A stretch of DNA of 32,000 bases from Candidatus Iainarchaeum sp. (GTDB lineage Archaea > Iainarchaeota > Iainarchaeia > Iainarchaeales > JAZDEL01), in assembly GCA_043808785.1 (NCBI GenBank), contig JAZDEL010000001.1:120001-152000 (forward strand). Reading direction: 5' to 3'. Of this stretch, positions 2,772-19,469 are shown piece after piece. The stretch's first letter is position 1; the number at the start of each line of letters is the position of its first letter. A model generated the notes under the pieces. The model saw only the letters and a list, made by a program, of their open reading frames with translations. It searched no databases and was not told the origin of the DNA. Made by a program: the position numbers and the translations under genes.

Positions 2772-3563
2772 ATGCAAAAGATAACGTTCGGCGAGATGGA
2801 ACTGAGGGCGCTTTTCGCGCTTGAGGAAAAGGAAGCGGGAGTGATAACGCTGGCCGAACTTGCGAAAAGGCTGAAATTGTCAAGGGTGCAGGCGTGGAAG
2901 CTCGCGTCAAGGCTCGCCCGAAAAAAGCGCCTGATTCGGCTGAAGCGGGGCATTTACCTGTTTGCGCCCATGAAAGCCGGCCCCAAGGGGCTTTGGACCG
3001 AAAATGCGCTCGCATCCGTGCCCAAGCTGATGGGCAGGAATGGCTATTACGTCGGCTTTTGGGCGGCATTGAATCATTACGGCTTTACCGAGCAAATCCC
3101 CTATGCCGTGCAGATAGTGGCTGTAAGGCGCCATCGTGCCTTTGAAGCACTTCAGTCGCGCTTTGAGTTTGTGCAGGTGCGGCGGCTGGGCGAATGGCGC
3201 GAGGAAAAAATCGGCGGTGAAATTGTGAGGTTTGCCACGGTCGAGCAACTCATAATAGACTGCCTCGCCCTCCCTGAAAACAGCGGGGGCATCAAGGAGG
3301 CCTGCAAGGCAATTTGGGAAGCGAGAGAGCGAATAGGCTGGAAAACGCTCGAATCTCTTGCAGCCAAGTCAAATGATGCCGTAGTGCGCAGGCTCGGCTA
3401 TCTCTCCGAATTGCTCGGCATACGCAAATTTAAGTCCAAGGCGTTCGTTGGCTGGCGCTGGCTCGACCCCACCGCCCCGAAGAAAGCGCTGGCGAGGTCG
3501 GTTAAATGGGGCCTTTTGCTGAACGTGGCGGAAAAAGAGCTGACCGAATGGAGGGAGCACTGA
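2772..3563 (+). CDS. AbiEi/COG5340-like antitoxin/transcriptional regulator
   Basis: It has an N-terminal wHTH (VITLAELAKRLKLSRVQAWKLASRLARKKRLIRLKRGIYLF). Its stop lies 1 nt before the start of the AbiEii-like gene, the classical antitoxin-toxin order. Confidence 0.7.
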   Translation: MQKITFGEMELRALFALEEKEAGVITLAELAKRLKLSRVQAWKLASRLARKKRLIRLKRGIYLFAPMKAGPKGLWTENALASVPKLMGRNGYYVGFWAALNHYGFTEQIPYAVQIVAVRRHRAFEALQSRFEFVQVRRLGEWREEKIGGEIVRFATVEQLIIDCLALPENSGGIKEACKAIWEARERIGWKTLESLAAKSNDAVVRRLGYLSELLGIRKFKSKAFVGWRWLDPTAPKKALARSVKWGLLLNVAEKELTEWREH

Positions 3564-3564
3564 G

Positions 3565-4323
3565 ATGTTTGGCTTGAGCGAACTGAAAAGGCTTGCCGCC
3601 GGGGAAGGCGTGCCGCAGGCAGTCGCAGAAAAAGACGTTGCCTTATCGGCAGCACTCAGGGCAATCGCCGGCTCGAAACTTGCAAGGCACGCGGTTTTCA
3701 AGGGGGGCACGGCAATAAAGAAAGTTTACTTCAGGGAAGCGAGATTTTCCGAAGACCTGGACTTCACAGCAGTAGGCATTGGCAGGGGCGTTTGCCTGCG
3801 GTTGCTGAGGGAAGCATTGGAGGGCAGGGCAGTAGAAGGCATAACTTTCGGAAAGCTTGAAGAGGAAAAGACTGCGGCAGGCTTGAAGGCATCCGTGAAG
3901 TATGCCGGCCCCCTGGCATATCCGCAAAGAATCCGTTTCGACTTCAGCTTCCGCAAAAACATCGCCGAAAAGCCTGTGCGCAGGGAATTGATTGACTCTT
4001 ACGGGCTTGGTTCTGCGGGATTATTGGTTTTGAGCCTTGAAGAGATTTTTGCCGAAAAACTGCACGCGCTGGGCTCCCGCTCCGCGCCCAGGGACCTGTA
4101 CGATGCCTGGTTCCTTTTCGGGAAGGGAATCAAAATGGACAAGCGGATTCTCGGCAGAAAATTCGCGTACTACCCTGAAAAATTCGACGCTTGGGGGGCA
4201 ATTGAAAGCGCAAGGAAGAGCAAAGGGCGCCGGGCAAGAGACTTGCGGCACCTGCTCAAAAAACTGCCAGACTTTGAGCTTGTGGAACAGGAAGTCGAAA
4301 CGAAACTGCTGGAACTTTCCTAG
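3565..4323 (+). CDS. AbiEii/COG2253-like nucleotidyltransferase toxin
   Basis: The motifs FKGGTAIKKVYF..ARFSEDLDF and EIFAEKLHAL..RSAPRDLYDAWFL are typical of the DUF1814/AbiEii fold. The gene is tightly coupled to 2772-3563. Confidence 0.75.
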   Translation: MFGLSELKRLAAGEGVPQAVAEKDVALSAALRAIAGSKLARHAVFKGGTAIKKVYFREARFSEDLDFTAVGIGRGVCLRLLREALEGRAVEGITFGKLEEEKTAAGLKASVKYAGPLAYPQRIRFDFSFRKNIAEKPVRRELIDSYGLGSAGLLVLSLEEIFAEKLHALGSRSAPRDLYDAWFLFGKGIKMDKRILGRKFAYYPEKFDAWGAIESARKSKGRRARDLRHLLKKLPDFELVEQEVETKLLELS

Positions 4324-4330
4324 TGGCCGC

Positions 4331-4640
4331 CCGCATCCATCCCGCCCCAAAAACCGCGGGAAAATCCCCCGATTTGCGGAATCGGCGCCGATTTTCGCTT
4401 TCCATAACTAATATAAACAATAATAGTGTAATTATAGTGCCTTTGCACGCGCGCTGTTCGTGCGCGGCGCGGGGCGTGGGGTTGTGCTTAGTTTATGAAC
4501 CGCAGAATGCCGCTTTTTTCGCGTGCTCCGTGCGAAATCCCGCGTTCGCCGTGCGAAATCCCGCGTTCCGTGCATTCGCGCACCATGTGCGGCGGAATTC
4601 CCGTTTCCGCGCTCTTCCTTGCCCTGATTGCCGTGCTGGC
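4331..4640. repeat. Direct repeat copy A (about 310 bp): duplicate of the terminator-promoter-5' coding region of the giant gene
   Basis: 4331-4447 is identical to 5920-6036 (117 nt). After a ~30-nt divergent patch, 4481-4570 again matches 6071-6160. Similarity fades near 4640. Confidence 0.9.
4380..4400 (+). terminator. Perfect 14-bp palindrome followed by a T-rich tract (possible terminator/operator); second copy at 5969-5989
   Basis: AATCGGCGCCGATT (4380-4393) is followed by TTCGCTTTCC. It sits 57 nt after the AbiEii stop, and the copy sits 57 nt after the HEPN stop. Confidence 0.35.
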
Positions 4641-4673
4641 TTTGTTTCCAGGTGCTTTGAGAAATTTCGATTG
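4494..4673 (+). pseudogene. 59-codon remnant of the giant gene's 5' end (signal-peptide-only ORF)
   Basis: It translates to MNRRMPLFSRAPCEIPRSPCEIPRSVHSRTMCGGIPVSALFLALIAVLALFPGALRNFD*. The first ~26 residues are identical to the N-terminus of the 6084 ORF. It then runs out of the repeat into a stop. Confidence 0.6.
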
Positions 4674-4692
4674 AAGCCCGCCAGAGCGAAAT

Positions 4693-4700
4693 ATTTATAT
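4693..4700 (+). promoter_or_regulatory. TATA-box-like element (ATTTATAT) upstream of the MNT gene
   Basis: It lies in AAATATTTATATTTG, about 38 nt upstream of ATG 4735, inside the unique (non-repeated) part of the cassette. Confidence 0.35.
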
Positions 4701-4734
4701 TTGCGTTTATCCGATAATACTATCGTGAAATCGT

Positions 4735-5364
4735 ATGGTTAAGGCGGAGTTCATAGACGCGATATTCGGGCAGTTTTTGCCCGAATTGAAGAAGAAGTTT
4801 ACCATAAGGAAACTTTCCCTGCTCGCTAAATTATCGTATGATGCCGCCTACAGGCATATTCACCATCTTATAAACGAAGGGGCGCTTAAAGAGGAAAAGG
4901 TCGGCGCCTATTCTTACGTCAGCATTAATTTTGAAAGTAGCCTCGCCCGGAAGATTGTTGAGAGGATAAGCTTGGGCAGAACCCGGCGGTTTATGAAGAA
5001 AGATATTGTTATGAAGAAAATGCTTGACGAGCTTGTGACGGGGCTGGAAAAGGCCGCGCCGAATGAGCTGCTTTCGGTTGCCCTTTACGGCAGCCATGCG
5101 AAAGGGACAGGGACAGAGCGCAGCGATGTGGACATTTTTGTCGTAGTTTCCGATTTTGGCGTGCGGGAAAAAGTTGAAAGGGCATGCAGCGGGGTTGAAA
5201 AAAGGTACGGCAAAGACATCGCCCCGCTGATTACGACTGCCGTTGAATTCAAAAATATGCTTAAATCTGAGAAGCCGATGGTTGCCCATGAAATACTGAT
5301 TGACGGCATTGTTCTTTACGGCTATGAAAAGTATTACTCAATTGCGTTTGAGGCGGTTAAATGA
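4735..5364 (+). CDS. wHTH-fused minimal nucleotidyltransferase (MNT-type antitoxin-like)
   Basis: The NTase signature is LYGSHAKGTGTERSDVDIFVVV (GS...DxD). There is an N-terminal wHTH-like region (RKLSLLAKLSYDAAYRHIHHLINEGALK). An ATGA overlap links it to the downstream HEPN gene. Confidence 0.75.
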   Translation: MVKAEFIDAIFGQFLPELKKKFTIRKLSLLAKLSYDAAYRHIHHLINEGALKEEKVGAYSYVSINFESSLARKIVERISLGRTRRFMKKDIVMKKMLDELVTGLEKAAPNELLSVALYGSHAKGTGTERSDVDIFVVVSDFGVREKVERACSGVEKRYGKDIAPLITTAVEFKNMLKSEKPMVAHEILIDGIVLYGYEKYYSIAFEAVK

Positions 5365-5912
5365 GGGGGCAAAAACTCAGGGAATTTGAAAAAAAAGGGC
5401 TGTGCGGAAAAACCCCGTTCATAAAGAGAATTGCCCCCCATTTTATGGAAAAGGCGAGGCATAACCTTCTTTTCTGCGCCGCTGCATGGGGCGTGAGCAG
5501 CAGGGAAGATGCGAAGAAAATCCTGGGGCTGCCTGGCGACTTTTCCGCTTTTGATTGGGTCGTGATAGCCGCCTACTATGCGATGTATCACGCCGCCCTG
5601 GCAGCGCTTGCGTCTGTCGGCTACAAAAGCGATAACCATGCCGCAACAGCTGCAGCCCTTGAAGTATTTTTTGTCAGGAAGAACCTTCTGGAACGCAAAT
5701 TCCTCGACAAATTGAAAGAGGCAAGGGCGCTTGAGGAGGAATATGCCCAAACGTTCAGGCGCGCAAGAAGGCAGAGGGAAACCGCGCAATACTGGGTAAC
5801 GGAAGAAACGGGAAAAGACGCTGCGGAAAAGCTCCTTGGGGATGCGAGGGGCTTTGTGGACAGAATTGAGAGGCTGATAAGTGAAATAGGGCGCAAAACT
5901 GAAAATGCGTAG
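5361..5912 (+). CDS. HEPN-domain protein (partner of the MNT)
   Basis: The protein is all-helical by composition and the gene is 4-nt coupled to the MNT gene. It has a HEPN-like core ...YYAMYHAALAALASVGY... and R-x4-Y (RETAQY) where RNase-type HEPNs have R-x4-6-H. Confidence 0.65.
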   Translation: MRGQKLREFEKKGLCGKTPFIKRIAPHFMEKARHNLLFCAAAWGVSSREDAKKILGLPGDFSAFDWVVIAAYYAMYHAALAALASVGYKSDNHAATAAALEVFFVRKNLLERKFLDKLKEARALEEEYAQTFRRARRQRETAQYWVTEETGKDAAEKLLGDARGFVDRIERLISEIGRKTENA

Positions 5913-5919
5913 CCCTGCC

Positions 5920-6270
5920 CCGCATCCATCCCGCCCCAAAAACCGCGGGAAAATCCCCCGATTTGCGGAATCGGCGCCGATTTTCGCTTTCCATAACTAA
6001 TATAAACAATAATAGTGTAATTATAGTGCCTTTGCGCGGCGTGTAATCATGCACGGCGCGGGGTGTGGGGTTGTGCTTAGTTTATGAACCGCAGAATGCC
6101 GCTTTTTTCGCGTGCTCCGTGCGAAATCCCGCGTTCGCCGTGCGAAATCCCGCGTTCCGTGAATGCGCGCACCATGTGCGGCAGACTTCCCGTTTCCGCG
6201 CGTGCTCCGCCTCCGGGCGGCAGACTTCCCGTTTCCGCGCTCTTCCTTGCCCTGCTTATCGTTCTTGCCG
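5920..6270. repeat. Direct repeat copy B (about 350 bp): functional terminator-promoter-5' end of the giant gene
   Basis: See copy A. Copy B carries an extra in-frame 39-nt duplication (6178-6201 and 6217-6240). Confidence 0.9.
5998..6026 (+). promoter_or_regulatory. AT-rich promoter region with two TATA-like boxes (TAATATAAAC, TAATTATAG) for the giant gene; duplicate at 4409-4437
   Basis: This is the only AT-rich block between the HEPN stop and ATG 6084. It is 100% conserved between the two repeat copies. Confidence 0.4.
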
Positions 6271-9200
6271 CGGATGTCCACGCGCCCGTAATGGACGTGA
6301 ATGCCGCGGGCTTGAACTTTCAGGTTACAACCATAAACCTCTGGGACAACAGCGCGGACTGGAACATATTTTTTCAACAAAGTTTGGGTGGGTTAGTTAC
6401 GCAATTATATGATGAAAACAGGGCTGGAACAACAAACTTTTCCTCAACAAACGAATTTGACAGGTGGTATGCCACAATATCAGGGAGCGGAAAACAGGAA
6501 ATCAATGATGCAAGCGCAAGGCTTTGGAAAATGGGGGACTTAAATTCGCGGGCGCAGATAGTTTCAGAAAGCGCGTTTTATAGGTGTTCAGGAGGACTGT
6601 GTAACTTCGATGTGAACACTTATCGCGTAAATTCAATTTACCCCATAGGGCGCACCGAAACAGGGCACGGAATAGTGCGCTGGGTCGTGCACATGGAAAT
6701 GACTGACACGAACCTGCTGAAAGCGACAACTGACTACAACGCGTTTCACCACGCAATCAGCGTGGGGGCGCCCACAAAATACGACTTCAATTCCTTCACA
6801 GACAACAATGTTGGGGCGCCGGGCGATGCGGAATGGTGGCACGGGCAGCAGTATACGAGGCAGAGCGGCGATGCGAACCAGGTCTTTGTTATTGGTTATT
6901 CCCCAAACAGGGTGCAGCGTTTTTTTGAGCGCCTGTGGAATCCAACCAGCGCAAACCAATGGGTAAGCGATAATTGCATAAACTTGGACCCAAACGACAG
7001 TTGCTGGAATGACAATAACCTCTACCCGCAATTCAACGCTGGCGAAATGGAATACCTGAATTACGTTATTTTTCTAACGGACACAAATTGGTTTACTTCA
7101 ATTAATGGCAACATATATGCGTTGACAGACGAAAACCGCATAGATTACGTAATGCAGGACTGGCGCAACCCCGACACGCCGTTCATGCAGAAGGGCGTTT
7201 TCAGTTATTTCGACTTCAATGTCGGCGCATACGACATGAACGCCGACATGAACCGCGTGGACTTCAATATGGACACGCGCGGGACAAAGAATTCGTACAA
7301 CGAGTTCTATTCGGACATGAACACGATGGATACGAACCGCTACCGCCCGGCTTTTGTCGTGCGCAATTATACTGCGGATGCTGTGCCAGAGGTGAAAATA
7401 AACGGCAGGTTCGGCACCTACGATGTGAACTACATGGCGGACGTGAACTGGGCCGCGGATTATGCCGTTGTTGTCTGGTACGGCGATTTGACCCTGCCCG
7501 ACCAGAACGTGCAGCTGCAGATAGGCTATGACATAAATGCGCCGGCGGTTTCGATTACCTCCCCTTCCGTGGGCTCCTCGACTGCGGCAACCTCGATGAA
7601 CATAAAATACTGGGGCATCGACATGAACACGGGGATAAAGAAATATTACGTGCGCATGGACGCGGGGGACTGGATTGACAATAATGTGAGCATAACCAAA
7701 AACTTCCTCGGGTTAGGTGCGGGGGAGCATACGGCTTATGTTATCGCAACGGACAATGCGGACAATAACTCCGCGCAGGCGAGTGTTACCTTTACCTTGA
7801 CCGCGCCTGCGCTGACAATAAGGCACCTTGACGTGAACGCGACAGGGGCGAATTTTGAGGTGGGGACGGCGGATTTCAATGTGTTTTTCCAGCAGAGTGA
7901 GGGTGGATGCATAACGAAAGTCGTTGATTTGAACAGGGATTCGGCAAAGAAAAATTTGTCTGTCAGCAGTGGCAGCGAGTTCTTTGATCACTGGTTTGGG
8001 ACAGACAGCAGCAGTCAGAGCAGGACAGAGGGTGATGATAATGCCTCACAATTATGGAAAGCCGAGGACCTGAACAGCAGGGTTAAAATCACGTCAAGCG
8101 GCGCATTAACCCGCTGGGGCGCGGCAGGGGAAAGCATCTCCGGCACAAGCGGGCAGATTTACGACCTTAATTTCCTAAAAACCACGACAATTTACCCGAT
8201 AGTGGGCGGGTTCAGGCTTGTGATTCACGACGAATTTACCGACGTAAACTCCGCAGCCACGGATTATGGTTGGTTTTACCACGGCACCGAGATAATCTCA
8301 AGCACATTCTACACCTATTCGGATAATAATTGGGGCGGGACTGGTTGGGGCGCCAAGGTTCTTGATAAGTCTTTCTGGCGCGGAATGCAGCGCTATGACC
8401 TGAACTCCGATTTTGACGCAAATACGGTCATTGTAATCGCTTATGAAAAGCCAACCTCACAAAAGTTCTTCAACGGCAAATGGGACCCATCAGTCGTTGT
8501 GTCCAATTGGGGGCTCCCCTCCAGTGGCACCTATTGGGCCGATTCTACCCTTTCCGATTTCAGCGCAGGCGAGATGGATTACATAAATTACACCATTATC
8601 CTCATCGGCACTAAGGAATTCGGGCAGGTAATTCCCGGAATACAGGAAGCCCCGGACGAGAACTTTGTTGATTATTACATGCTCGACTACCGCAATCCCG
8701 ACAATTTGTTCATGGCAACAGGCACCTCGCAGGGCTTTGATTACAACCACGGCGCCTATCTTGTCACTGCAAGCGGCAACCGCGTGGACTTCAACATCTC
8801 CACTAACGGAATATACAACGACCACAACAACTGGGACACTAACCGCTACAGCCCCGCCTTTGAAATCGCAAACTACACAGCAAGCACCCGCCCATTGATG
8901 CGCCTGAACAACGTCGATTTGAACGAGGGGATTGACTTTGTTGCGGATGTGAACACCGAGGGCCAGTACGCGGTTGTTGTCTGGTTCGGCGATTTGACAG
9001 GGGACGACCAGAACGCGCAGATACAGATTGACAACGACTGGGCCGCGGGCGCGAACACCGCCCCAGATGTTAATGTAACCTCTCCCAGTGACGCAAATTA
9101 CCTCTCGCAATACACGGGAGGATATGACCACAACATTTCCCTTGTTTTCAGCGTGATGGATGCGGAGGGAGATGAACTCAATGCGGATTTGTATTATTCA

Positions 9201-12200
9201 ACCTCCGCGGGGGATTTCACTACTGCGATAATCAACGACCTCAACCTCAACGACCACGCAAACAACGCCGCGCTTTCCTGCGATGATGTGGACTGGACGG
9301 ACGCCACAACATGCGTCTTTGACTGGAACGTTTCAGCAATAGCGGACGGCAACTACTTCATTGATTTGAATGTCTTCGACACCTCGGATTTGAACAAGGT
9401 GGACTCGAGTGCGGTCTCGTTCTACATAGACAACACTGAGCCCTCCACAAGCTGGGACGGCAACAGAACATGGAGCAAGCACGACCAGAACATAACTTTG
9501 ACATGCACCGATGACACAGCGTGCGCCTCGACAAAATACAGGTTAGACACCAACGGTGCCTCGGTTGTGAGTTATGGGGCGTGGCAAACATACACCGCGG
9601 CGGGAATTTCCGTAACCGACGACGGCAATTACGCGATTGATTTCAACAGCACGGACACAGCGGGAAACGTGGGAGATACAAACACATTCTACATTTTGAT
9701 AGACAAGAACTCGCCCGCTGTTTCGTTCACCTCGCCCGCTGCGGGCTCCGAAACGGCGGCAAACTCGATGAACGTCAAATACTCAGGCAACGATTCAAAC
9801 GGCAGCGGAATCCTGAGATACTGGGTAAAAATGGATTCGGGCGAATACATAAACAACGGCACGAACATAACCAAAAACTTCCTCGGGTTAGGGGCGGGTT
9901 CACATACCGCTTCGGTTATTGCGACCGACAATGCGGACAACAACTCGAGCACGGCGAGCGTGACATTTACCCTTACAACGCCCGCAGTGACAAAGCGCTA
10001 CCTCGACGTGAACCAGACAGGGCTGAACTTCGAGGTCGGCACAGCGGACTTCAATTTGTTCTTTAACCAGGGCCAAGGGGGCGTTGTAACTGGCTTTGCA
10101 GACCTGAACGTGGACGCAAGGGTTAAAACAAATTTTGCAGGGACCAGCGGCCTGAGCACTTGGATGATGCAGCACGTCCCCAGCACCTTCTGGAGATACG
10201 AAAACCAGGACACCAGCGCAAGGCTGAGCCTTGACGAGGACCTGAACGCAAGGGTGAAAATAGGCGCAGAAGGCGCACTTATGACTTCCACCAGCAAAGT
10301 GTTCGACCTCAATTTCACGAAAACGAACACTATTTACCCGAACGGGAAATGGTATGTCACCATGATTTTTACCGACACCAACACCGATGCCACGAATTAC
10401 GCAACTACGAGGCATTACGAATGCGCAGACAATGATTATACTGCGGTATATAGGGACAATGACGACGCCACCCCCGACCCCGGGTTCGAATGGTGGCACC
10501 AGCTTGTGCGGAAAGACCTGAATTCGGATTACGATTCAAATACATCCGTGACCTGCGGCTACGACACGCCCTCCGCGCTTAAGTTCTTCACGGGAAAGTG
10601 GAATGTCGACGGCATTCCCAGTGCCCTTTCCGGCTGCACCAGCGGCGGCGGCTGGGCGGCAACGCTTGACCCCGAATTCGCCGCAGGCGAGGTTTCATAC
10701 CTCAATTATATGCTTTACATAAGCAACATGAGGGAAACGGGACCGGCCAGTGAGGAAGAGTTTATAGATTCCTTTTACCTCGATTACCGCACGCCCGACG
10801 ATTTGTTCATGACAACGGGAACATCGCAGGGTTTCGATGTAAATGTCGGGGCATACAAGCTCACAGCCAGCGGCAACCGCGTGGACTTCAACATCTCCAC
10901 TAAGGTAGGGGCGACGGATGTCAACAGGTACAAGCCCGCGTTCGAGATTTCCAATTACACCGCATCCACAAGGCCGCTCCTCAGGCACAACGGCGCGGAC
11001 AAGAACGAGGGAATTGATTTCATCGCTGACGTCAACACAGTGGGGCAGTACGCCGTTGTGGTGTGGATGGGCGACATCCTGACAACGGATGTCAATGCGC
11101 AGTTCCAGATTGACGACTCATGGGTAACGGACACAAACGCCCCCTCCACCTCCTGGGACGGCAACGCCTCATGGAGCAAATACGACCAGAACATACGCCT
11201 CACATGCACCGATGACAGTTCAGGCTGCGCAAGCACGAAATACAGGCTGGACACCAATGGCTCATCAACGGTTTCATATGGTTCATGGGCGGCATACACC
11301 TCCGCAGGCATCTCGGTAACGGGAGACGGAAACTTCGCCCTTGACTTCAATTCAACAGACACGGCGGGCAACGTTGGGGATACAAACACCAAATACGTGT
11401 TGATAGACAGCAACGCCCCCGCGGTTTCCTTCACCTCCCCCGCTGCGGGTTCCTCCACGGCGGCAAACTCGATGAACGTCAAATACTCAGGCAATGATTC
11501 AAACGGCAGCGGAATAACTAAATATTATGTTCGCATGGACTCAGGGAACTGGATAGACAACAATGTGAACATCACAAGAAACTTCTTAGGGTTAACTGCG
11601 GGCGAGCACACCGCTTACGTGATTGCAACGGATAATGCCGACAATAATTCAAGCACTGCGAGCGTGACGTTTACCTTAACCACACCTGCGGCGACCGTAA
11701 GGCACCTTGACGTGAACGCGACAGGGGCGAATTTCGAGGTGGGGACTGCGGATTTTAACCTGTTCTTCCAGCAGGATAGAGGTGGGGGCATATCAAGGCT
11801 TGTTGATTTGAACAGGGATGGCGTGCTTAAAACCAACGATGTGGGTTCTTTATGCTACTATAGCTCTTATAGTTTTCCTGGACTGCTTGACGGGTGGCAT
11901 GCCAGGATGGATACGGGCACAAGGCACAGGACGCTTCATGACGACAACAGCGCGCAACTGTGGAAAGCCGAGGATTTGAACAGCAGGGTTCAGATAAAAT
12001 CCAGTGGCGCGCTCATGGATTGGAATGGTGCAGGCTCCCCGCATTGGGATTTGAACTTTACCCAGACAAACACCGTTTACCCAGTTCTTGGCGGTTTAAG
12101 GGTTGCAGTCCACCTTGAGATGACGGACACAAACTCGGGGGCAACAAATTATGGCGCCCCATTCACTAATATTTATTGTACAAGCGGCTTTGTCACATAC

Positions 12201-15200
12201 ACAGACAACAATGTAACCAACCCCGCAGGCAATGAATGGTGGTATGCAGTCCAGCGCCGCGATTTGAATTCGGACTTCGACGCAAACACGGCAATTGCCC
12301 GCGGCTACGCCAAGCGCGCAGCAGATGCCCATTTTTACAACAACAAATGGGACCCGACTTGGGTTGATGCGTGGGTGAACACAAACGGCGGTAATTGGAC
12401 TGCCAATAGCGGTCTTACTACTCAATTCAACGCTGGGGAAACCGACTACATAAACTACACGCTTTACATCGCCAGCACAAAGGAACTTGGGCAGGTAATA
12501 TACGGGGCTGCTGCCGGATCTTCCGGAATAAAGAACGCCCCCGACGAAAACAAAATCGATTACATCATGCTCGATTACCGCAATCCCGACAATTTATTCA
12601 TGACAACAGGCACCTCGCAGGGCTTTGATTACAACCACGGCGCCTATCTTGTCACTGCAAGCGGCAACCGCGTGGACTTCAACATCTCCACTAACGGAAT
12701 ATACAACGACCACAACAACTGGGACACTAACAGGTACAGCCCGGCGTTCGAAATCAGCGGTTACACAGCCTCCACCCGCCCGCTCATGCGCCTTAACGGG
12801 GCGGATTTGAACGAGGGAATCGACTTTGTTGCGGATGTGAACGATTCCGCGGATTATGCGGTTGTTGTTTGGTTAGGCTCGCTCACGGGAGACGACCAGA
12901 ACGCGCAATTGCAGATTGCCTCATCATGGGACTCAAACGCCCCCGCTGTTTCGATAACCTCCCCCGCCTCGGGCTCCTCGACGGCGGCGAACTCCATGAA
13001 CGTAAAATACTGGGGCGTGGATGTGGACACGGGAATAAAGAAATACTACGTCCAGATGGATTCTTTGGGATGGATAGACAACGGCACGAACATCACGCGC
13101 AAGTTCTTCGGCTTAGCTGCGGGTTCGCACACGGCTTACGTAATTGCCGTTGATAACGCGGACAACAATTCAACAACGGCGAGCGTTACCTTTACCTTAA
13201 CCACGCCTGCGGCGACCGTAAGGCACCTTGACGTGAACGCGACAGGGGCGAATTTTGAGGTGGGGACGGCGGACTTTAATATGCTCTTCAACCAGCAGTA
13301 CGGCGGGGGAATTACGAAAATATTTGACCTGAATCGTGATGGGGTAATTAAAACCAACTTTGCGTCGGCTGTTTATTCGACTTTTGAGTTTGACCAATGG
13401 GTGGCGGCGATTGGTGCCCAGAGCCGCGTGATGGCTGATGACAACGGCGCCCAATTATGGAAAGCCGAGGATTTGAACAGCAGGGTTAAGATAAGTTCAA
13501 GCGGGGCGTTTATTGAATGGGATGGCGCACCCGCTGGGCCGAAATGGGACTTGAATTTCAACAGGACATATGCAATATATCCTATTACAGGCGGTCTCAA
13601 AATTGTTGCACACCTTGAAATGACTGACACAAACAGTTCGGCAACAAATTATGACATTTTTCGCCATGTTTTTTATTCGAAAGGTTCAGGGACTGTTACA
13701 CATACGGACAACAATGTGTCCGCACCAGCGGGAACAGAATGGTGGTATGCAGTCCAGCGCACTGATTTGAACTCCGACTTTGATGCAAACACAGCGATTG
13801 CCCGCGGCTATGCCAAGCGCGCCGCAGATTCAAGTTTTTACAACGAGAAATGGGACCCAACTGCCGTGCACATGTGGTATACTAGCGGTTGGGCTAACTG
13901 GCAAGATGGCGATCTCTCCCCTGAATTCCAGCCAGGCGAAACCGATTACGTAAATTACATTATGTATTTCGCAAGCACAACCGAACTTGGGGGGGTGACT
14001 TATGGGTTGTCTTCGGGAATACAGTCCGCCCCCGACGAAAACAAAATCGATTACATCATGCTCGACTACCGCAACCCCGACAATCTGTTCATGGCAACAG
14101 GCACCTCGCAGGGCTTCGATTCCAACACGGGCGCCTACAAGGTTACCGCTTCGGGCAACAGCGTTGACTTCAACATCTGCACTAACGGAATAATGAACGA
14201 CCAGAACCTCTGGGACACGAACAGGTACAGCCCCGCGTTTGAAATCGCAAGTTACACCGCCTCCACGCGCCCCTTAATGCGCCTGAACAACGTGGATTTG
14301 AACGAGGGAATTGATTATGTTTCCGATGTGAACACTGCAGGCGATTACGCGGTTGTAGTCTGGCTCGGCGATTTGACTGTTGAGGATTCGAATGCGCAGC
14401 TGCAGGTTGCGGCAAGCTGGAATGCCGCGCCGACGGTAGCCATAACGCACCCTATAGACAGGCTTTCAACGACGGGGAACGGGATAACCGTGGCATACTC
14501 GGGCACGTCCCAGAACGGGATTGCGAAATATTACGTCAGGATTGACACTAATGATTGGATAGACAACGGCACTAGCACATCATACTCCTTCAGCGGCCTG
14601 AACTATGCGGCGCACGTTGTGTATGTAATCGCAAATGACACAACGGATGTGAATTCCGCTACGGCAAGCGCATCATTCACGCTTTCCCCGATAGGGGAGG
14701 CGCCGGTAACGGAGGCAATCGGCGGAACCCCTGAGGAAGGGGGCGCGCAGGGAACGGAAGGAACTCAGGGAACCGAAGGGCAGGCAGCGCAGACCGAAAC
14801 AATAGCGGAATCAACCTTCGTATTCGAACAGAGGGGGCAGGGCGCAAGAGGCGCGCTTGCAGGGCTCGGCATCCCGCAGGTCCAGCTGGAGCAGGCAGCG
14901 GCAATGTCGGGCAAGGTGATAAGGTCTGTGGAAATAACAAAGGCGCTCAAAGGCGAAATGCTTTATTACAACAGCAAAATAACCCTTGTAGTAATGAACA
15001 CATCCATGGAGGATATGAAGGACGTGAGCATTGTCGAGCACATACCCAAGGAAATAGCGCAGGACGCATCTGAAATAAACTCCGAAACGCCCTTCATCGT
15101 TATAAAGGGCGACCCTATTGTAAGATTCATGATTGGCGACATCAATGCAGGCGGGGAAACGGAGATAACCTACTTGGTGCCAAATGCAATAAGCATTGGC

Positions 15201-15872
15201 GGCGCAAGGGCGGCAATAGAATACTACTCATCCAATGCCCCGATAATAGCGGGCTCGCCGCGTTTGGGGGTGGCTGAGAGCATCAAATATGCCGTGCTCA
15301 GCTCCCTGTACCGCTATGTTCCCACAAAAAGCCAGATAACCGAAACCCTGAGGAGCGCGGGCATGGATGTAAGCAAGGCAGCGGAGGCGTTGCGCATAAA
15401 CAGCCTCGTTACCCTGTACAAGGGCGGAACAGTGATTGCGGAGGAAGGCATGCATGGCACAAAATACACCACAAACTTCACCATAAAGGTCGTGAACAGC
15501 TCGGACAAGCCCATAATGGATACGCGTGTGCTGGAGGTAATCCCGAAAACAATTGCGGAAACCGCAAACCTTGTAAATGCAAAGGGAAACCACAGGGTGC
15601 TTGTTCAGGACCCGGTGCTTGAGTTTGAAATAGGCACGCTTCCCGCGGGAAAATCGGCAACAGTGCAGTACGAAGTCGGGAAGAAAGTGGGCAGGCAGGA
15701 GATAGAGGAGCTGTCCGCCCCTGTAGTGACGGGCGTAACCGAAGAGCCTGCAAAGGAGGAGGCGCCGAAGGACGACACCCTGTTAATTATAGGGCTTGCG
15801 GCGCTTGCGGTTATATGCGTGGGCGCATTCCTGATGAAAAAGTACGAGATAAAGCTTGAGCTTGAGATATGA
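6084..15872 (+). CDS. Giant (3,262 aa) modular, C-terminally membrane-anchored cell-surface protein
   Basis: This is an uninterrupted 9,789-nt ORF. The signal-like segment is ...VSALFLALLIVLAADVHA. Five ~430-aa modules are each followed by a ~90-aa Ig-like domain (SP..GS.TAA.SMN.KY.G.D..GI.KYYV.MD...WIDN..NIT..F.GL.AG.HTAYVIA.DNADNNS..ASVTFTL). There are two chitobiase-C/Big-like inserts (PSTSWDGN..WSK.DQNI.LTCTDD..CASTKYRLDTNG). The C-terminus has two beta-sandwich-like domains, the TM helix LLIIGLAALAVICVGAFLM and a short basic tail. The start is uncertain (ATG 6084 or ATG 6174). Confidence 0.9.
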   Translation: MNRRMPLFSRAPCEIPRSPCEIPRSVNARTMCGRLPVSARAPPPGGRLPVSALFLALLIVLAADVHAPVMDVNAAGLNFQVTTINLWDNSADWNIFFQQSLGGLVTQLYDENRAGTTNFSSTNEFDRWYATISGSGKQEINDASARLWKMGDLNSRAQIVSESAFYRCSGGLCNFDVNTYRVNSIYPIGRTETGHGIVRWVVHMEMTDTNLLKATTDYNAFHHAISVGAPTKYDFNSFTDNNVGAPGDAEWWHGQQYTRQSGDANQVFVIGYSPNRVQRFFERLWNPTSANQWVSDNCINLDPNDSCWNDNNLYPQFNAGEMEYLNYVIFLTDTNWFTSINGNIYALTDENRIDYVMQDWRNPDTPFMQKGVFSYFDFNVGAYDMNADMNRVDFNMDTRGTKNSYNEFYSDMNTMDTNRYRPAFVVRNYTADAVPEVKINGRFGTYDVNYMADVNWAADYAVVVWYGDLTLPDQNVQLQIGYDINAPAVSITSPSVGSSTAATSMNIKYWGIDMNTGIKKYYVRMDAGDWIDNNVSITKNFLGLGAGEHTAYVIATDNADNNSAQASVTFTLTAPALTIRHLDVNATGANFEVGTADFNVFFQQSEGGCITKVVDLNRDSAKKNLSVSSGSEFFDHWFGTDSSSQSRTEGDDNASQLWKAEDLNSRVKITSSGALTRWGAAGESISGTSGQIYDLNFLKTTTIYPIVGGFRLVIHDEFTDVNSAATDYGWFYHGTEIISSTFYTYSDNNWGGTGWGAKVLDKSFWRGMQRYDLNSDFDANTVIVIAYEKPTSQKFFNGKWDPSVVVSNWGLPSSGTYWADSTLSDFSAGEMDYINYTIILIGTKEFGQVIPGIQEAPDENFVDYYMLDYRNPDNLFMATGTSQGFDYNHGAYLVTASGNRVDFNISTNGIYNDHNNWDTNRYSPAFEIANYTASTRPLMRLNNVDLNEGIDFVADVNTEGQYAVVVWFGDLTGDDQNAQIQIDNDWAAGANTAPDVNVTSPSDANYLSQYTGGYDHNISLVFSVMDAEGDELNADLYYSTSAGDFTTAIINDLNLNDHANNAALSCDDVDWTDATTCVFDWNVSAIADGNYFIDLNVFDTSDLNKVDSSAVSFYIDNTEPSTSWDGNRTWSKHDQNITLTCTDDTACASTKYRLDTNGASVVSYGAWQTYTAAGISVTDDGNYAIDFNSTDTAGNVGDTNTFYILIDKNSPAVSFTSPAAGSETAANSMNVKYSGNDSNGSGILRYWVKMDSGEYINNGTNITKNFLGLGAGSHTASVIATDNADNNSSTASVTFTLTTPAVTKRYLDVNQTGLNFEVGTADFNLFFNQGQGGVVTGFADLNVDARVKTNFAGTSGLSTWMMQHVPSTFWRYENQDTSARLSLDEDLNARVKIGAEGALMTSTSKVFDLNFTKTNTIYPNGKWYVTMIFTDTNTDATNYATTRHYECADNDYTAVYRDNDDATPDPGFEWWHQLVRKDLNSDYDSNTSVTCGYDTPSALKFFTGKWNVDGIPSALSGCTSGGGWAATLDPEFAAGEVSYLNYMLYISNMRETGPASEEEFIDSFYLDYRTPDDLFMTTGTSQGFDVNVGAYKLTASGNRVDFNISTKVGATDVNRYKPAFEISNYTASTRPLLRHNGADKNEGIDFIADVNTVGQYAVVVWMGDILTTDVNAQFQIDDSWVTDTNAPSTSWDGNASWSKYDQNIRLTCTDDSSGCASTKYRLDTNGSSTVSYGSWAAYTSAGISVTGDGNFALDFNSTDTAGNVGDTNTKYVLIDSNAPAVSFTSPAAGSSTAANSMNVKYSGNDSNGSGITKYYVRMDSGNWIDNNVNITRNFLGLTAGEHTAYVIATDNADNNSSTASVTFTLTTPAATVRHLDVNATGANFEVGTADFNLFFQQDRGGGISRLVDLNRDGVLKTNDVGSLCYYSSYSFPGLLDGWHARMDTGTRHRTLHDDNSAQLWKAEDLNSRVQIKSSGALMDWNGAGSPHWDLNFTQTNTVYPVLGGLRVAVHLEMTDTNSGATNYGAPFTNIYCTSGFVTYTDNNVTNPAGNEWWYAVQRRDLNSDFDANTAIARGYAKRAADAHFYNNKWDPTWVDAWVNTNGGNWTANSGLTTQFNAGETDYINYTLYIASTKELGQVIYGAAAGSSGIKNAPDENKIDYIMLDYRNPDNLFMTTGTSQGFDYNHGAYLVTASGNRVDFNISTNGIYNDHNNWDTNRYSPAFEISGYTASTRPLMRLNGADLNEGIDFVADVNDSADYAVVVWLGSLTGDDQNAQLQIASSWDSNAPAVSITSPASGSSTAANSMNVKYWGVDVDTGIKKYYVQMDSLGWIDNGTNITRKFFGLAAGSHTAYVIAVDNADNNSTTASVTFTLTTPAATVRHLDVNATGANFEVGTADFNMLFNQQYGGGITKIFDLNRDGVIKTNFASAVYSTFEFDQWVAAIGAQSRVMADDNGAQLWKAEDLNSRVKISSSGAFIEWDGAPAGPKWDLNFNRTYAIYPITGGLKIVAHLEMTDTNSSATNYDIFRHVFYSKGSGTVTHTDNNVSAPAGTEWWYAVQRTDLNSDFDANTAIARGYAKRAADSSFYNEKWDPTAVHMWYTSGWANWQDGDLSPEFQPGETDYVNYIMYFASTTELGGVTYGLSSGIQSAPDENKIDYIMLDYRNPDNLFMATGTSQGFDSNTGAYKVTASGNSVDFNICTNGIMNDQNLWDTNRYSPAFEIASYTASTRPLMRLNNVDLNEGIDYVSDVNTAGDYAVVVWLGDLTVEDSNAQLQVAASWNAAPTVAITHPIDRLSTTGNGITVAYSGTSQNGIAKYYVRIDTNDWIDNGTSTSYSFSGLNYAAHVVYVIANDTTDVNSATASASFTLSPIGEAPVTEAIGGTPEEGGAQGTEGTQGTEGQAAQTETIAESTFVFEQRGQGARGALAGLGIPQVQLEQAAAMSGKVIRSVEITKALKGEMLYYNSKITLVVMNTSMEDMKDVSIVEHIPKEIAQDASEINSETPFIVIKGDPIVRFMIGDINAGGETEITYLVPNAISIGGARAAIEYYSSNAPIIAGSPRLGVAESIKYAVLSSLYRYVPTKSQITETLRSAGMDVSKAAEALRINSLVTLYKGGTVIAEEGMHGTKYTTNFTIKVVNSSDKPIMDTRVLEVIPKTIAETANLVNAKGNHRVLVQDPVLEFEIGTLPAGKSATVQYEVGKKVGRQEIEELSAPVVTGVTEEPAKEEAPKDDTLLIIGLAALAVICVGAFLMKKYEIKLELEI
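6300..7803 (+). repeat. Giant-gene coding repeat 1 (module A1 6300-7535 + Ig-like B1 7536-7803)
   Basis: It starts with LNFQVTTINLWDNSADWNIFFQQSLGG and ends with NVQLQIGYDINAPAVSITSP...SVTFTLT. Boundaries are approximate. Confidence 0.75.
7804..9977 (+). repeat. Giant-gene coding repeat 2 (A2 7804-9050, extra Ig-like + chitobiase-C-like insert 9051-9707, Ig-like B2 9708-9977)
   Basis: The module runs from RHLDVNATGANFEVGTADFNVFFQQSEGG to NAQIQIDNDW. It is followed by APDVNVTSP..., EPSTSWDGNRTWSKHDQNITLTCTDD... and NSPAVSFTSP...SVTFTLT. Confidence 0.75.
9978..11681 (+). repeat. Giant-gene coding repeat 3 (A3 9978-11135, chitobiase-C-like 11136-11410, Ig-like B3 11411-11681)
   Basis: The module runs from RYLDVNQTGLNFEVGTADFNLFFNQGQGG to NAQFQIDDSW. 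It is followed by NAPSTSWDGNASWSKYDQNIRLTCTDD... and NAPAVSFTSP...SVTFTLT. Confidence 0.75.
11682..13201 (+). repeat. Giant-gene coding repeat 4 (A4 11682-12935 + Ig-like B4 12936-13201)
   Basis: The module runs from RHLDVNATGANFEVGTADFNLFFQQDRGG to NAQLQIASSW, followed by NAPAVSITSP...SVTFTLT. Confidence 0.75.
13202..14690 (+). repeat. Giant-gene coding repeat 5 (A5 13202-14420 + diverged Ig-like B5 14421-14690)
   Basis: The module runs from RHLDVNATGANFEVGTADFNMLFNQQYGG to NAQLQVAASW, followed by NAAPTVAITHP...ASASFTLSP. Confidence 0.75.
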
Positions 15873-16106: not shown

Positions 16107-16802
16107 GGATTTCAGGCGCAATGCCTTGAAAAAGAAAAATTTTCATTTGACGAAACAGGGTTCATTTACGTAAGCCTTTCCCTTGAAGGAAACACCCTTA
16201 CTCTGTCCGAAACCGAAAAAATAACCGGGCAAAACATTGCCCCCGCATCAAAACCATTCAAGGATGCGCAGCAGGTCCTGGATTATAAAAAAGCGCTTGA
16301 CGGGTTTATTTTCTCGGATAAGGCAATCACGCAGGAATCTATTATCGAGTTTCACAGGGCGGCAATGAATCCCCTGGCTGCGGGCGCAGGCAAATTCAGG
16401 GCGGGAAATGTCAGGATAAAAGGCAACCCCGCCTTTAAAACCCCCGACTGGAGGGAGCTTTCGGGGCTATTGGCGGTGTTTTTCAAAAGCGCGGGCATCC
16501 CGGAAAAGAAAAAAGTTTCCGCCGCCGAAACAGTCGAAAGCGCTGCCTTTTTGCACAACGAATTCCAGCGCATCCATCCGTTCATTGACGGCAACAGCAG
16601 GACATCGAGGGCGGTATTCCTGAAAGCGCTGGCCCAAAGCAATTTTCCGTTAATAAAAATTCCCGTGGGCTTTTCCGACCAATACATGAAACTGACCAAA
16701 CTAAGCGAAAAAAGAGACGACAAAAAATTTGCCCTGCTGATGAAGCAGATAGCCCTCGAAAACCTGAAATACTTTGCAAAAAAACTCGAGTATGAATCCT
16801 GA
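16107..16802 (+). pseudogene. Fic/DOC-family protein gene lacking an upstream start codon (probably 5'-truncated)
   Basis: The Fic motif HPFIDGNSRTSR is a variant of HxFx(D/E)GNGRxxR with Gly->Ser. The frame is open back to the TAA at 16104 and encodes Fic-like N-terminal sequence (...SLSLEGNTLTLSETEKI...IIEFHRAAM). There is no ATG, GTG or TTG in frame before ATG 16365. Confidence 0.6.
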
Positions 16803-17258: not shown

Positions 17259-18206
17259 CTACCTCGGCAAATCTATAACTATGCCCTCGCCCTTCTTTAT
17301 CTTGTATATCACAAGCCCCTTCTTGTGGTTGCTGCTCCTGAGCTTGAGTATCTCTATCGCATTCGTGCGCGAGAGCTCCCTCTTCACATTGTAAAGCACC
17401 ACAACCCCGTCCGCCAAAAATTCTTCAACTCCGGTTCTGCTGTATATCCTCGGGTCCTGCTCGGTTTCCGCAATTATGAGCGAAAGGGCGCCAGTGGATT
17501 CAAGCGCGTCGAAAAGCTTCTTCACATACCTCCTGTAATTTTCCTCGTCCTCGAAGGCTATGCTCAGGGCCGAGAGCGAATCTATGGCAATGCGGTCCGG
17601 CACAAACGGAAACACTATCTTCTCGGTTTTTATGTCGGGCTCCCTGTCGCTCATGAACATGCGCTCGACGCTGCGGGCAAGCTTAAGGGAATCGCATTTC
17701 ACACCCGCGAAAAGGCCGCGGCGCTCCATTTCATACAGGTCCCAGCCGTAATTCTTTTTCATGTGCGCCTTTATCTTCTCGGGTTCCTCCTCGAAGGAGA
17801 TGAAGATGCCGCGCTCGCCGTTTAGGCAGCCGTTGTACAGGGACTGCATTGCAAAAGTGGTTTTTCCCGTGCCCGCGCCCCCTGATATGAGTATGCTGGA
17901 GCCCCTTTCAATCGCGCCGTCGTCCACAAGGCCGTCAAAATTGCTCACCCTCACGGGAAGATATTCTCCATCGCCCCTCACGCCCTTGTAGTTTGCGTGC
18001 TTTATCGCCTCCCTGAGGCCCAGCTTGTCCCCGAACTCGATTATGTCCGAGAAAATCCTGTATGCGCCCTCATCAAACTTCTCTTCCGCACCGCGGGATT
18101 TTGCAGCGTCCGTGCCCTTTGCGCCTTTTTGCGGCTCGTTCTTCCTTTTCAGGAAATTCAGGGATACTTTTCCAAACAATTTAGCCATTCCAATCATCTT
18201 GCCCAT
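17259..18206 (-). CDS. KaiC/RecA-superfamily ATPase (single KaiC-like domain) with a ~95-aa N-terminal extension
   Basis: Walker A is ILISGGAGTGKTTFAMQSLYNG and Walker B-like is RIAIDSLSAL. The segment ...LSLIIAETEQDP... is typical of archaeal KaiC-like ATPases. Confidence 0.8.
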   Translation of the reverse strand: MGKMIGMAKLFGKVSLNFLKRKNEPQKGAKGTDAAKSRGAEEKFDEGAYRIFSDIIEFGDKLGLREAIKHANYKGVRGDGEYLPVRVSNFDGLVDDGAIERGSSILISGGAGTGKTTFAMQSLYNGCLNGERGIFISFEEEPEKIKAHMKKNYGWDLYEMERRGLFAGVKCDSLKLARSVERMFMSDREPDIKTEKIVFPFVPDRIAIDSLSALSIAFEDEENYRRYVKKLFDALESTGALSLIIAETEQDPRIYSRTGVEEFLADGVVVLYNVKRELSRTNAIEILKLRSSNHKKGLVIYKIKKGEGIVIDLPR

Positions 18207-18284
18207 GTTTCCGCCGAACGCATTTTTTACGGCTTATATCATTTAATAATAACCTCTAACCCTTATTAAAATATCCCCCCTTCC

Positions 18285-19469
18285 TTAGCAGATGCCCCCT
18301 TCGAGCTTCTCCAGCTCTTCCCGCAGTTCCCCCAGCCTTTTTGAGTATGTTTTTTTGCTTATCGTGGCATTCTCGAAGTAATCGCGCTTCAGTTGCGAAA
18401 TTTCGCCCTCTATGCCCGACCTCTTCCTCATTTCACCGCGTTTTCTGAGGCTTCTGCCTATTGCGCTCTTGGTTGCGAAAAATAAAATTGCCATCAGCAA
18501 AACAAACCCCGCCGCGCCCGCAATAAGCACGGTGTTGCTGTTTATTATGCCTTCGCTTATGATTACGGTTATTTCCCTGTGTGCGGTGTTGCCGTATCCG
18601 TCTTCGGCACCTATTTCCAGTGCGGTTGTGCCGAGGTTGGACTCGTTAGGCATGAAGTTATAGCTGTAACTGTAATCCTCCCCTATATCCATCCTGAACT
18701 TCTCCCCCCCCACCTTCAGGGTTGCGTCTCCCTTGAACAGCCTGCCGTCCAGGTATCTCATGCGCACCTTTACGGGAATCTCGAAGCCCAGGGTAAAGTT
18801 GGATGCCTGCGGGCTTTCAATCTCGACATCGACCTGCGCAGGGGCGATGCTCATTCCGAACACGCCCTCTCCGCCGATTTCGGAATCTTCGCTTCCCCCC
18901 TGCGCGGTTACGGTAAATTCCCATTTCCCGAGCGGCGCATCCACGGGGATGAACTGCCGCATTGAATAAACCCCGCCGCCCGCATGCGTGAACTCGTGCC
19001 TCGATCCCTCGGCGCCCCATGCAACAACCGACGCGTCCTCCACGGCCTTGCCGTCCTCGGAAACGCGTATGCTTGCGTTGAACTCCTCCGTGCGGTAGTG
19101 CTCGGTTTCGCTCGGGCTGAGGAGCGTCAGCAGCAGGTAGCCGCCCTCTCTTGTCGGGTTTACGTAAATGTCGGTGCTTTTTGTGCTGAGCCCGTCCACA
19201 GCGGTTAGCCTCCATCTCCCTTTGGGGTCCAGCTGGGTTATTTTGTGCATAATCCCGTATGCCTTGTCCGCCGCGCAGGAGGTTGTTTCGTGGAACACGA
19301 GCAGGCCATGCATTTCCGCGCTTAGTTCCACGGCATTTGTTTCACACCTGCCGTTTATGGTTATGGTTTCGCCCTTTGTGTAGGAATTCTTCGGCACCTC
19401 TATTGTTGTCGCGCCCGCCAGCGAGCAGAGCGCAAGCAGCACCGCAATTAAAACAATCCATGCCCTCAT
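18285..19469 (-). CDS. Secreted single-pass membrane protein: signal peptide, Ig-like/beta-sandwich ectodomain, TM helix, cytoplasmic coiled-coil (SHOCT-like) tail
   Basis: The signal peptide is MRAWIVLIAVLLALCSLAGA. The ectodomain ends ...GAEDGYGNTAHREITV. The TM helix is VLIAGAAGFVLLMAILFF and the tail is ...ISQLKRDYFENATISKKTYSKRLGELREELEKLEGG. An ATGA overlap links it to the upstream gene. Confidence 0.8.
   Translation of the reverse strand: MRAWIVLIAVLLALCSLAGATTIEVPKNSYTKGETITINGRCETNAVELSAEMHGLLVFHETTSCAADKAYGIMHKITQLDPKGRWRLTAVDGLSTKSTDIYVNPTREGGYLLLTLLSPSETEHYRTEEFNASIRVSEDGKAVEDASVVAWGAEGSRHEFTHAGGGVYSMRQFIPVDAPLGKWEFTVTAQGGSEDSEIGGEGVFGMSIAPAQVDVEIESPQASNFTLGFEIPVKVRMRYLDGRLFKGDATLKVGGEKFRMDIGEDYSYSYNFMPNESNLGTTALEIGAEDGYGNTAHREITVIISEGIINSNTVLIAGAAGFVLLMAILFFATKSAIGRSLRKRGEMRKRSGIEGEISQLKRDYFENATISKKTYSKRLGELREELEKLEGGIC

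Follow-up and report, generated by a model that had tools for sequence, protein, structure and literature searches.

A giant, C-terminally anchored surface protein of an Iainarchaeota archaeon with five copies of a rare module and an ordered D-x-N signature

We analyzed a 32,000-nucleotide (nt) stretch of DNA from Candidatus Iainarchaeum sp. (assembly GCA_043808785.1, contig JAZDEL010000001.1, positions 120,001 to 152,000 of the forward strand; hereafter the window), in which a single gene encodes a giant surface protein built around five copies of a module of about 410 amino acids (aa). The gene lies in an uninterrupted open reading frame (ORF) of 9.8 kb. From M31 onward, this frame yields exactly the protein recorded as GenBank MFH1224321.1 (“hypothetical protein V1676_00785”) in a Ca. 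Diapherotrites metagenome-assembled genome (MAG). As in that record, translation more likely starts at the ATG at 6174; we prefer this start because positions 6084 to 6173 fall inside a duplicated 283-nt segment with a 21-nt tandem duplication, and because homologues show short n-regions followed by cleavage directly before the first module. The parts of the gene are listed below, where homologues of the module are numbered P0001 and so on, L002 is the locus of a syntenic orthologue in an independent Ca. Iainarchaeum assembly, and Ig-like stands for immunoglobulin-like.

5919..6201 (+): direct repeat, copy 2, spanning the promoter-like box and the giant gene's first codons
5990..6030 (+): AT-rich promoter-like box TAATATAAACAATAATAGTGTAATTATAG upstream of the giant gene
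6084..15872 (+): maximal ORF, 3,262 codons plus stop
6174..15872 (+): probable coding sequence, 3,232 aa, GenBank MFH1224321.1
6174..6284 (+): Sec-type signal peptide with hydrophobic region LPVSALFLALLIVLAA; likely cleavage after VHA, abutting module 1, with homologues alike
6285..7535 (+): module 1 (aa 68–484), the most divergent subtype, grouping with P0001
7536..7823 (+): Ig-like spacer 1, Big_7/OmpL47-type
7824..9053 (+): module 2 (aa 581–990), 95% identical to a module in the Iainarchaeum orthologue
9054..9416 (+): additional, putatively Ig-like domain (aa 991–1111), no family match; also in the orthologue and in P0010, P0012 and P0014
9417..9707 (+): OmpL47-type/Big-like domain A (aa 1112–1208)
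9708..9998 (+): Ig-like spacer 2
9999..11135 (+): module 3 (aa 1306–1684), a short subtype, 90% identical to an orthologue module
11136..11411 (+): OmpL47-type/Big-like domain B (aa 1685–1776)
11412..11702 (+): Ig-like spacer 3
11703..12935 (+): module 4 (aa 1874–2284), the copy used for the structure model (pLDDT 78, pTM 0.88)
12936..13223 (+): Ig-like spacer 4
13224..14426 (+): module 5 (aa 2381–2781), 69% identical to module 4
14427..14687 (+): Ig-like spacer 5, with a Big_7 score equal to the gathering cut-off of Pfam
14688..14819 (+): low-complexity G/T/E/Q-rich linker (stalk)
14820..15263 (+): membrane-proximal domain A
15339..15758 (+): membrane-proximal domain B, with a weak sub-threshold DUF11 match
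15780..15833 (+): single C-terminal transmembrane helix LLIIGLAALAVICVGAFL
15834..15869 (+): cytoplasmic tail MKKYEIKLELEI, 12 residues

Read from its N-terminus, the protein consists of a signal peptide, five units of a module plus an Ig-like spacer, a linker, two membrane-proximal domains, a transmembrane helix and a tail; besides the regular spacers, two OmpL47/Big-type domains and one further Ig-like domain are inserted. Ten conserved strings named beforehand each recur, regularly spaced, four to five times. A BLASTP search of the protein with module 4 as query returned copies at aa 70–490, 578–990, 1302–1690, 1870–2290 and 2377–2786 (39–67% identity, E 3e-79 to 0), and the five modules are 39–69% identical to one another, with a mean column identity of 61% in the five-way alignment. 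Every module is followed by an Ig-like domain of about 96 aa, copies of which are 49–79% identical by BLASTP, and the two OmpL47/Big-type domains (about 100 aa each) are 75% identical. The NCBIfam model NF047446 (OmpL47-type) scored 120.4 bits on the whole protein (E 3.3e-35, six stretches; cut-off 40), with all of the signal coming from the small domains, both the Ig-like spacers and the OmpL47/Big-type ones; single spacer domains scored 29–32 bits each. Pfam gave borderline Big_7 and Big_13 matches on the small domains, and one spacer weakly matched the Ca_tandemer/LapB-repeat models (E 0.05 and 0.008; Ca_tandemer 14 bits against a cut-off of 50).

The protein has only two hydrophobic segments, the N-terminal signal peptide and the C-terminal transmembrane helix at aa 3233–3250. 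Membrane-proximal domains A and B are homologues (32% identity, E 2e-13), and a domain of this type also precedes the anchor in P0003, P0004, P0006, P0007 and P0012. Domain B matched DUF11 (PF01345) at 19.4 bits (E 0.0014), below the gathering cut-off of 24.6, and domain A had no match; homologue P0003 carries a precomputed PF01345 match. We found no PGF motif before the C-terminal helix in ...KEEAPKDDTLLIIGLAALAVICVGAFLMKKYEIKLELEI and no match to an S-layer family in Pfam or NCBIfam. A first-pass annotation, made by a model from the letters alone, had described much of this: an anchored surface protein encoded by one 9.8 kb ORF, with five long modules, an Ig-like domain after each, a second Big-like domain after two of them and two membrane-proximal domains near the C-terminus. 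All of these parts are borne out. Its 3,262 aa are correct for the ORF and longer than the protein expected from the start at 6174; it overlooked the additional Ig-like domain and gave the tail ten residues instead of 12.

The most unusual element of the giant protein is the order of its Asp and Asn residues. The protein is acidic (isoelectric point, pI, 4.4) and rich in both (Asn 8.7%, Asp 8.2%), and D-x-N triplets occur 129 times against 22.8 expected from composition, a 5.6-fold enrichment (z = 24.5). The reverse triplet N-x-D is not enriched (30 observed, 22.8 expected), D-x-D and N-x-N are depleted (11 against 21.5 and 6 against 24.3, respectively), and the standard sequon N-x-S/T shows no enrichment either (57 observed, 48.7 expected). 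Within the protein, 46% of the Asn and 49% of the Asp residues lie in D-x-N triplets, whose middle position is usually L, V, T or F. Across the ectodomain (6174–14687), the modules, the Ig-like domains and the OmpL47-type domains are each enriched 4–6-fold, and the C-terminal anchor region has next to no such triplets. Twelve D-x-N positions recur in every one of the five modules, and many of these lie at strand ends. Archaeal relatives carry the same signature at 3–7-fold enrichment (P0001–P0010, P0012 and P0014), while in bacterial homologues of the same domain the ratio is about 1; the motif therefore does not come with the fold but is a lineage-specific overlay on extracellular domains.

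Four of the five modules each have one D-x-N site in the string VDLNRDG, a D-x-N-x-D-G loop that we take to be a canonical calcium loop on the established pattern of EF-hand and DxDxDG-type loops. Judged from the sequence, calcium binding is a reasonable partial explanation of D-x-N; how often the motif occurs and how strictly it is ordered go beyond it. We rejected the idea that a diversity-generating retroelement underlies the Asn richness, as D-x-N lies in conserved columns across the whole ectodomain and not in a short variable region.

To place the repeated module, we compared it with known families as single sequences, sub-domains and profiles, and found no match in Pfam, NCBIfam or PDB sequences. 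At E ≤ 10, Pfam still left all five modules without a match, and searches of PDB sequences with 5- and 26-sequence profiles gave chance-level matches only (calsensin and 3b7c, E ~0.8). An exhaustive HMMER search over 1.84 billion cluster representatives identified 48 related proteins (E ≤ 1e-3), 9 of them close (E ≤ 1e-30). Seven of the nine close relatives are labelled Diapherotrites or Micrarchaeota (DPANN) and two have no label. The “Micrarchaeota” labels may be loose, since P0003, which bears one, matches the C-terminal end of the Ca. Iainarchaeum orthologue almost exactly. Two paralogues lie in the same MAG as the giant gene (P0006 with three modules, P0007 with two), and the sole other species representative in GTDB with close relatives is the Ca. 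Iainarchaeum MAG (phylum Iainarchaeota, or Diapherotrites; kingdom Nanobdellati, DPANN), which has several copies. Metagenome scans and a scan of viral contigs yielded no module relatives. A word-indexed homologue search was insensitive: it returned four matches to the module profiles and no match to the C-terminal anchor region, although local phmmer finds homologues of the latter.

In the distant relatives, the match covers either the entire domain or just its C-terminal third. Where they can be characterized, these proteins look bacterial (e.g., Candidatus Moranbacteria, “bacterium F11”), and the domain sits in large extracellular proteins with Laminin_G_3, Peptidase_C25, CHU_C, fn3 and CarboxypepD_reg neighbours, of which Laminin_G_3 is a ConA-like lectin domain. 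No Pfam family covers the homologous region of these bacterial proteins either. The repeated module is a new, very sparsely distributed domain family, predicted to belong to a known fold class.

The modules sort into at least four subtypes common to the paralogues and the Iainarchaeum orthologue at L002. Module 2 groups with an L002 module (95%), P0007-2 and P0008-2; module 3 with another L002 module (90%) and P0006-2; modules 4 and 5 with P0006-1, P0007-1, P0008-1 and P0006-3; and module 1 with P0001. By their sequences, modules 4 and 5 look like the only recent internal duplication (69% identical). In the orthologue, the module-3-type copy stands before the module-2-type copy, the reverse of the order in the giant protein. 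Since subtypes are kept while their order differs, the family evolves by gain, loss and reshuffling of cassettes. Homologues in other MAGs nearly all end at contig ends (P0002, P0003, P0004, P0008, P0049 and the L002 gene, 94–5352), so the module copy numbers there are lower bounds.

We predicted the structure of module 4 with AlphaFold. A run on a nine-sequence alignment of close homologues was not usable (predicted local distance difference test, pLDDT, 52) and was replaced by one on a 26-sequence alignment (A3) with distant homologues added, which gave an almost all-beta model of about 31 strands (pLDDT 78; predicted template modelling score, pTM, 0.88). Foldseek against the PDB returned 45 matches at E ≤ 1e-3, mostly galactose-mutarotase-like beta-supersandwich domains of carbohydrate-active proteins; about 40 supersandwich domains were matched at probability 1.0 (E 3e-7 to 1e-3), with TM-scores of 0.28–0.37 and a root-mean-square deviation (rmsd) of 7–20 Å. 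The matches include a glycoside hydrolase family 38 (GH38) alpha-mannosidase (6lz1, E 3e-7), aldose 1-epimerases (3mwx, 1ns2, 3ty1), the polysaccharide lyase BACCELL_00875 (5nok), heparinase II (2fuq), OpgD (8iox), GH36 alpha-galactosidases, LacZ, cellobiose phosphorylase, and GH94 and GH65 phosphorylases. In a viral structure library, a phage “fibronectin type III” protein was the sole match at a similar level. The model suggests that the module resembles the galactose-mutarotase-like supersandwich at the level of the fold, with no claim of homology, and at that level the resemblance suggests contact with glycans.

Conservation within the module is uneven. Its most conserved part, in close and distant relatives, is the C-terminal third (approximately residues 290–400), which carries the motifs DYRNPD, GAY, VDFNIS and NRYxPAFxI, and insertions vary at approximately residues 55–90, 160–170, 225–245 and 265–290. 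Seven polar residues (D42, E97, R102, Y133, D298, Y322 and R351) are near-invariant even in homologues at 20% identity.

We propose that this archaeon of the Iainarchaeota (Diapherotrites, DPANN) uses its giant type-I surface protein, anchored at the C-terminus, as a multivalent adhesin, a reading to which we give about an even chance, and that the adhesin is probably glycan-binding and Ca2+-stabilized. In such a protein, the Sec signal peptide would be cleaved directly before module 1, and the single transmembrane helix, the two putatively DUF11-like membrane-proximal domains and the flexible, low-complexity stalk would hold the chain at the membrane. The five supersandwich modules, alternating with rigid Ig-like spacers, would be kept distant from the cell. 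Their predicted galactose-mutarotase-like, “carbohydrate-binding type” fold, with its highly conserved C-terminal beta-sandwich part, may contact glycans of another cell's envelope (S-layer glycan or extracellular polysaccharide) or of a surface. At least four conserved subtypes could provide several specificities on a single stalk, and the dense Asp/Asn decoration in the D-x-N pattern probably binds Ca2+, which would stiffen the chain. Large surface proteins are the main candidates for the means by which DPANN archaea recognize and attach to other cells. The giant protein offers a concrete, testable object, with an unnamed rare domain, a confident model and several subtypes per stalk; if it is merely a generic adhesin, it adds one more member to a familiar class.

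Much of this picture extends the first-pass annotation, which had taken the protein for an adhesin or cell-contact protein, possibly of a host-dependent small archaeon. The architecture fits the former, and the latter guess agrees with a Ca. Diapherotrites MAG whose close relatives lie in Ca. Iainarchaeum (DPANN). The annotation had also noted an N/D-rich composition, which is real and more specific than described, and had read it as a sign of Ca binding or glycan contact; this agrees with the VDLNRDG loop and with the supersandwich-like model, the latter at fold level only. Its placement of the module outside named families holds: no profile matched a well-characterized family, and the structural resemblance is one of fold (TM-scores 0.28–0.37). 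It had left the function of the module open, and here the model (pTM 0.88) now points, at fold level, to carbohydrate-active supersandwich domains.

Several observations weigh against the adhesin reading. The adhesin or cell-contact role is one that we infer from architecture, and since some Iainarchaeota may live freely, contact with a host should not be taken for granted. The structural matches are at fold level, with query-normalized TM-scores of 0.28–0.37, rmsd of 7–20 Å and identity of at most 14%. Capsid chains of the giant virus PBCV-1 are among the top Foldseek matches, and the signal is therefore partly a generic “large beta-sandwich” similarity. A comparison of alignment A3 with E. 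coli GalM by hhalign was null (probability 0.4%). Finally, in most of the matched enzymes the supersandwich is an accessory domain, in a few it is catalytic, and none is a proven stand-alone lectin.

Other explanations of the same protein deserve consideration. It may be a structural envelope or sheath protein (S-layer-like or a spacer) that has no specific ligand and forms a Ca2+-bridged protective coat around a small cell. The low pI of 4.4, the extreme and ordered Asp/Asn content and the all-beta architecture would suit such a coat, as would the C-terminal anchor and the conserved membrane-proximal domain common to several surface proteins, and neighbouring genes likewise encode Ig-rich membrane proteins. 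We nonetheless consider a coat unlikely: three paralogues with five, three and two modules in one genome, a different module order in the orthologue and the conserved subtypes fit variable adhesins better than one conserved lattice protein, and no PGF-CTERM or S-layer family match was found in Pfam or NCBIfam. The modules could instead be an anchored array of glycan-active catalytic domains (epimerase-like, or beta-glucanases of the OpgD/GH186 kind) that process polysaccharide of a host or the environment. It is true that the best fold matches are enzyme domains, including aldose 1-epimerases and OpgD, whose beta-sandwich is catalytic, that D42, E97, R102, Y133, D298, Y322 and R351 persist at 20% identity, and that conservation peaks in the C-terminal third. 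The matched domains are mostly non-catalytic accessories, however, the TM-scores are low, no sequence or profile links the module to any enzyme family, an (alpha/alpha) toroid or TIM-barrel partner is missing, and five tandem copies with Ig spacers are typical of adhesins rather than enzymes, all of which makes a catalytic array rather improbable.

A bolder proposal starts from D-x-N itself and treats it as a lineage-specific, fold-independent recognition code, with the five modules as a new lectin-like family recognizing partner cells. Such a code could be a sequon for an undescribed surface modification, with Asp at −2 and without the usual Ser/Thr at +2, or it could be a regular Ca2+-binding lattice. 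We regard this proposal as improbable; a true modification or ion-binding code would amount to new archaeal surface biochemistry. Least probable of all is that the gene is a chimera or has a wrong module number, produced in assembly from its repeats and the two paralogues of the same genome. The family is evidently hard to assemble, as homologues are cut at contig ends in other assemblies, and three paralogues with modules 50–69% identical coexist in the MAG. Yet the intragenic DNA repeats are diverged (63–92% identical, the closest pair reaching 92% over only 152 nt) and thus give no sequence sign of repeat collapse, the frame is open over 9.8 kb and the contig extends for 214 kb. On these sequence grounds an artefact is an unlikely source of the gene model, because the repeats are diverged, modules 2 and 3 have orthologous counterparts at 95% and 90% in the independent Iainarchaeum assembly, and the 3′ flank of the gene is syntenic with that assembly (L002).

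Next, we characterized the genomic neighbourhood. The giant gene lies inside a stretch rich in toxin-antitoxin and defence genes (156–5912 and 16365–16802), and two tRNA genes were found toward the end of the window.

156–824: AbiEi_4-like ORF
1194–2492: AAA_14/DUF4143 ATPase
2772–3563: AbiEi
3565–4323: AbiEii
4735–5364: nucleotidyltransferase (NTase)
5361–5912: HEPN
16365–16802: Fic/DOC protein, just downstream of the giant gene
29704–29776 (−): tRNA-Gln(TTG)
30994–31069 (+): tRNA-Ile(GAT)

The 283-nt direct repeat (4330–4612 and 5919–6201, 95% identical, the second copy 1.6 kb downstream of the first) flanks the NTase/HEPN toxin-antitoxin pair (4735–5912). Both copies contain the AT-rich box, whose promoter role is putative, and the start of the signal-peptide coding region, and copy 1 terminates in a short remnant ORF (MCGGIPVSALFLALIAVLALFPGALRNFD, then a stop). 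This arrangement suggests either that a toxin-antitoxin cassette was inserted, duplicating the 5′ end of the giant gene, or that copy 1 is the remnant of a paralogue. Two tandem duplications are also present: a 21-nt unit repeated twice at 6117–6158, which reads PCEIPRS PCEIPRS in the long ORF, and a 39-nt duplication at 6155–6268 in the n-region of the signal peptide (GRLPVSARAPPPGGRLPVS).

Among the flanking archaeal genes are those for GatE with a GAD insert, a KaiC-like ATPase and an HVO_0163-type helix-turn-helix protein. Housekeeping genes near the two tRNA genes include those for GatE, NAD(P)H-hydrate dehydratase, an amino-acid kinase and a CDP-alcohol phosphatidyltransferase. Downstream of the giant gene lies a convergent three-gene cluster, 17259–21427 (−), encoding two surface proteins and the KaiC-like ATPase. 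The surface proteins (652 and 393 aa) are secreted and Ig-rich, and each ends in a transmembrane helix and a short, coiled-coil-like cytoplasmic tail. The N-terminus of the larger protein is Cys-rich, and no Pfam family covers either of the two. This cluster is syntenic in the Ca. Iainarchaeum MAG (L002, 5364–9389), where the ATPase is 71% identical and the surface proteins only 42–43%. We set aside a functional coupling of the giant gene with this KaiC-like operon, as the synteny is seen only in the close orthologue and the neighbourhood of paralogue P0004 differs. A 742-aa ORF at 22221–24449 (+) has weak sub-threshold matches (Pur_ac_phosph_N/fn3-like and a Cys-rich Dicty_CTDC repeat) and is mildly enriched in D-x-N (6 observed, 1.8 expected); this could be a further secreted protein of the surface-protein neighbourhood.

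Finally, we compared the giant protein with known systems. Galactose-mutarotase-like domains comprise aldose 1-epimerase, the GH38 C-terminal, GH36/GH31 N-terminal, GH2 domain 5 and GH65/GH94 N-terminal domains, the C-terminal domains of heparinase II and other polysaccharide lyases, and OpgD/OpgG. The model of the module is alike in predicted fold class, a large all-beta sandwich of two sheets and about 30 strands. It differs in having no detectable sequence or profile similarity to these domains (TM-scores 0.28–0.37), no module giving a significant sequence-profile match to Aldose_epim in Pfam, and in standing alone, five times on one stalk, without a catalytic partner domain.

Among Ca2+-stabilized repeat adhesins of bacteria (RTX/BAP-type; Ca_tandemer), the design appears analogous, with an anchor, rigid Asp/Asn-rich Ig-like extenders and modules that would bind ligands. 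The giant protein, however, is archaeal and Sec/transmembrane-anchored, is not a substrate of a type I secretion system and lacks RTX repeats; its modules alternate with spacers instead of occupying the tip, and its Ig-like domains are single and form no tandem run. Its spacers match the domain model of the Leptospira OmpL47-type multi-beta-barrel surface proteins (NF047446/NF047441; 120 bits against 40), but this likeness is confined to the spacers of about 70–100 aa: the equivalog NF047441 scores 78 against a cut-off of 250, and the modules of about 410 aa are unrelated. VARTIG modules of Thermococcales (PMC8416519) were considered and kept as a loose analogy only.

The nearest parallel within DPANN is provided by the SPEARE proteins of Nanohaloarchaeota, giant surface proteins with adhesion domains and several paralogues per small genome (PMC6642349). 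These and other giant DPANN surface proteins span 3,000–8,500 aa, are mostly extracytoplasmic and have a transmembrane anchor near the C-terminus (PMC6642349). SPEARE proteins carry laminin-G domains, their most conserved part is a cytoplasmic restriction-endonuclease-like (type III) region after the transmembrane helix, and the member from Ca. Nanohaloarchaeum antarcticus has a serine-protease domain as well (PMC6642349). The giant protein shares with them its size, C-terminal anchor, multiple adhesion-type domains and several paralogues; it has no LamG, protease or nuclease match in Pfam or NCBIfam, and its tail is just 12 aa long. Giant, C-terminally anchored proteins rich in adhesion domains are thus already known in DPANN, and what is new here is the module family.

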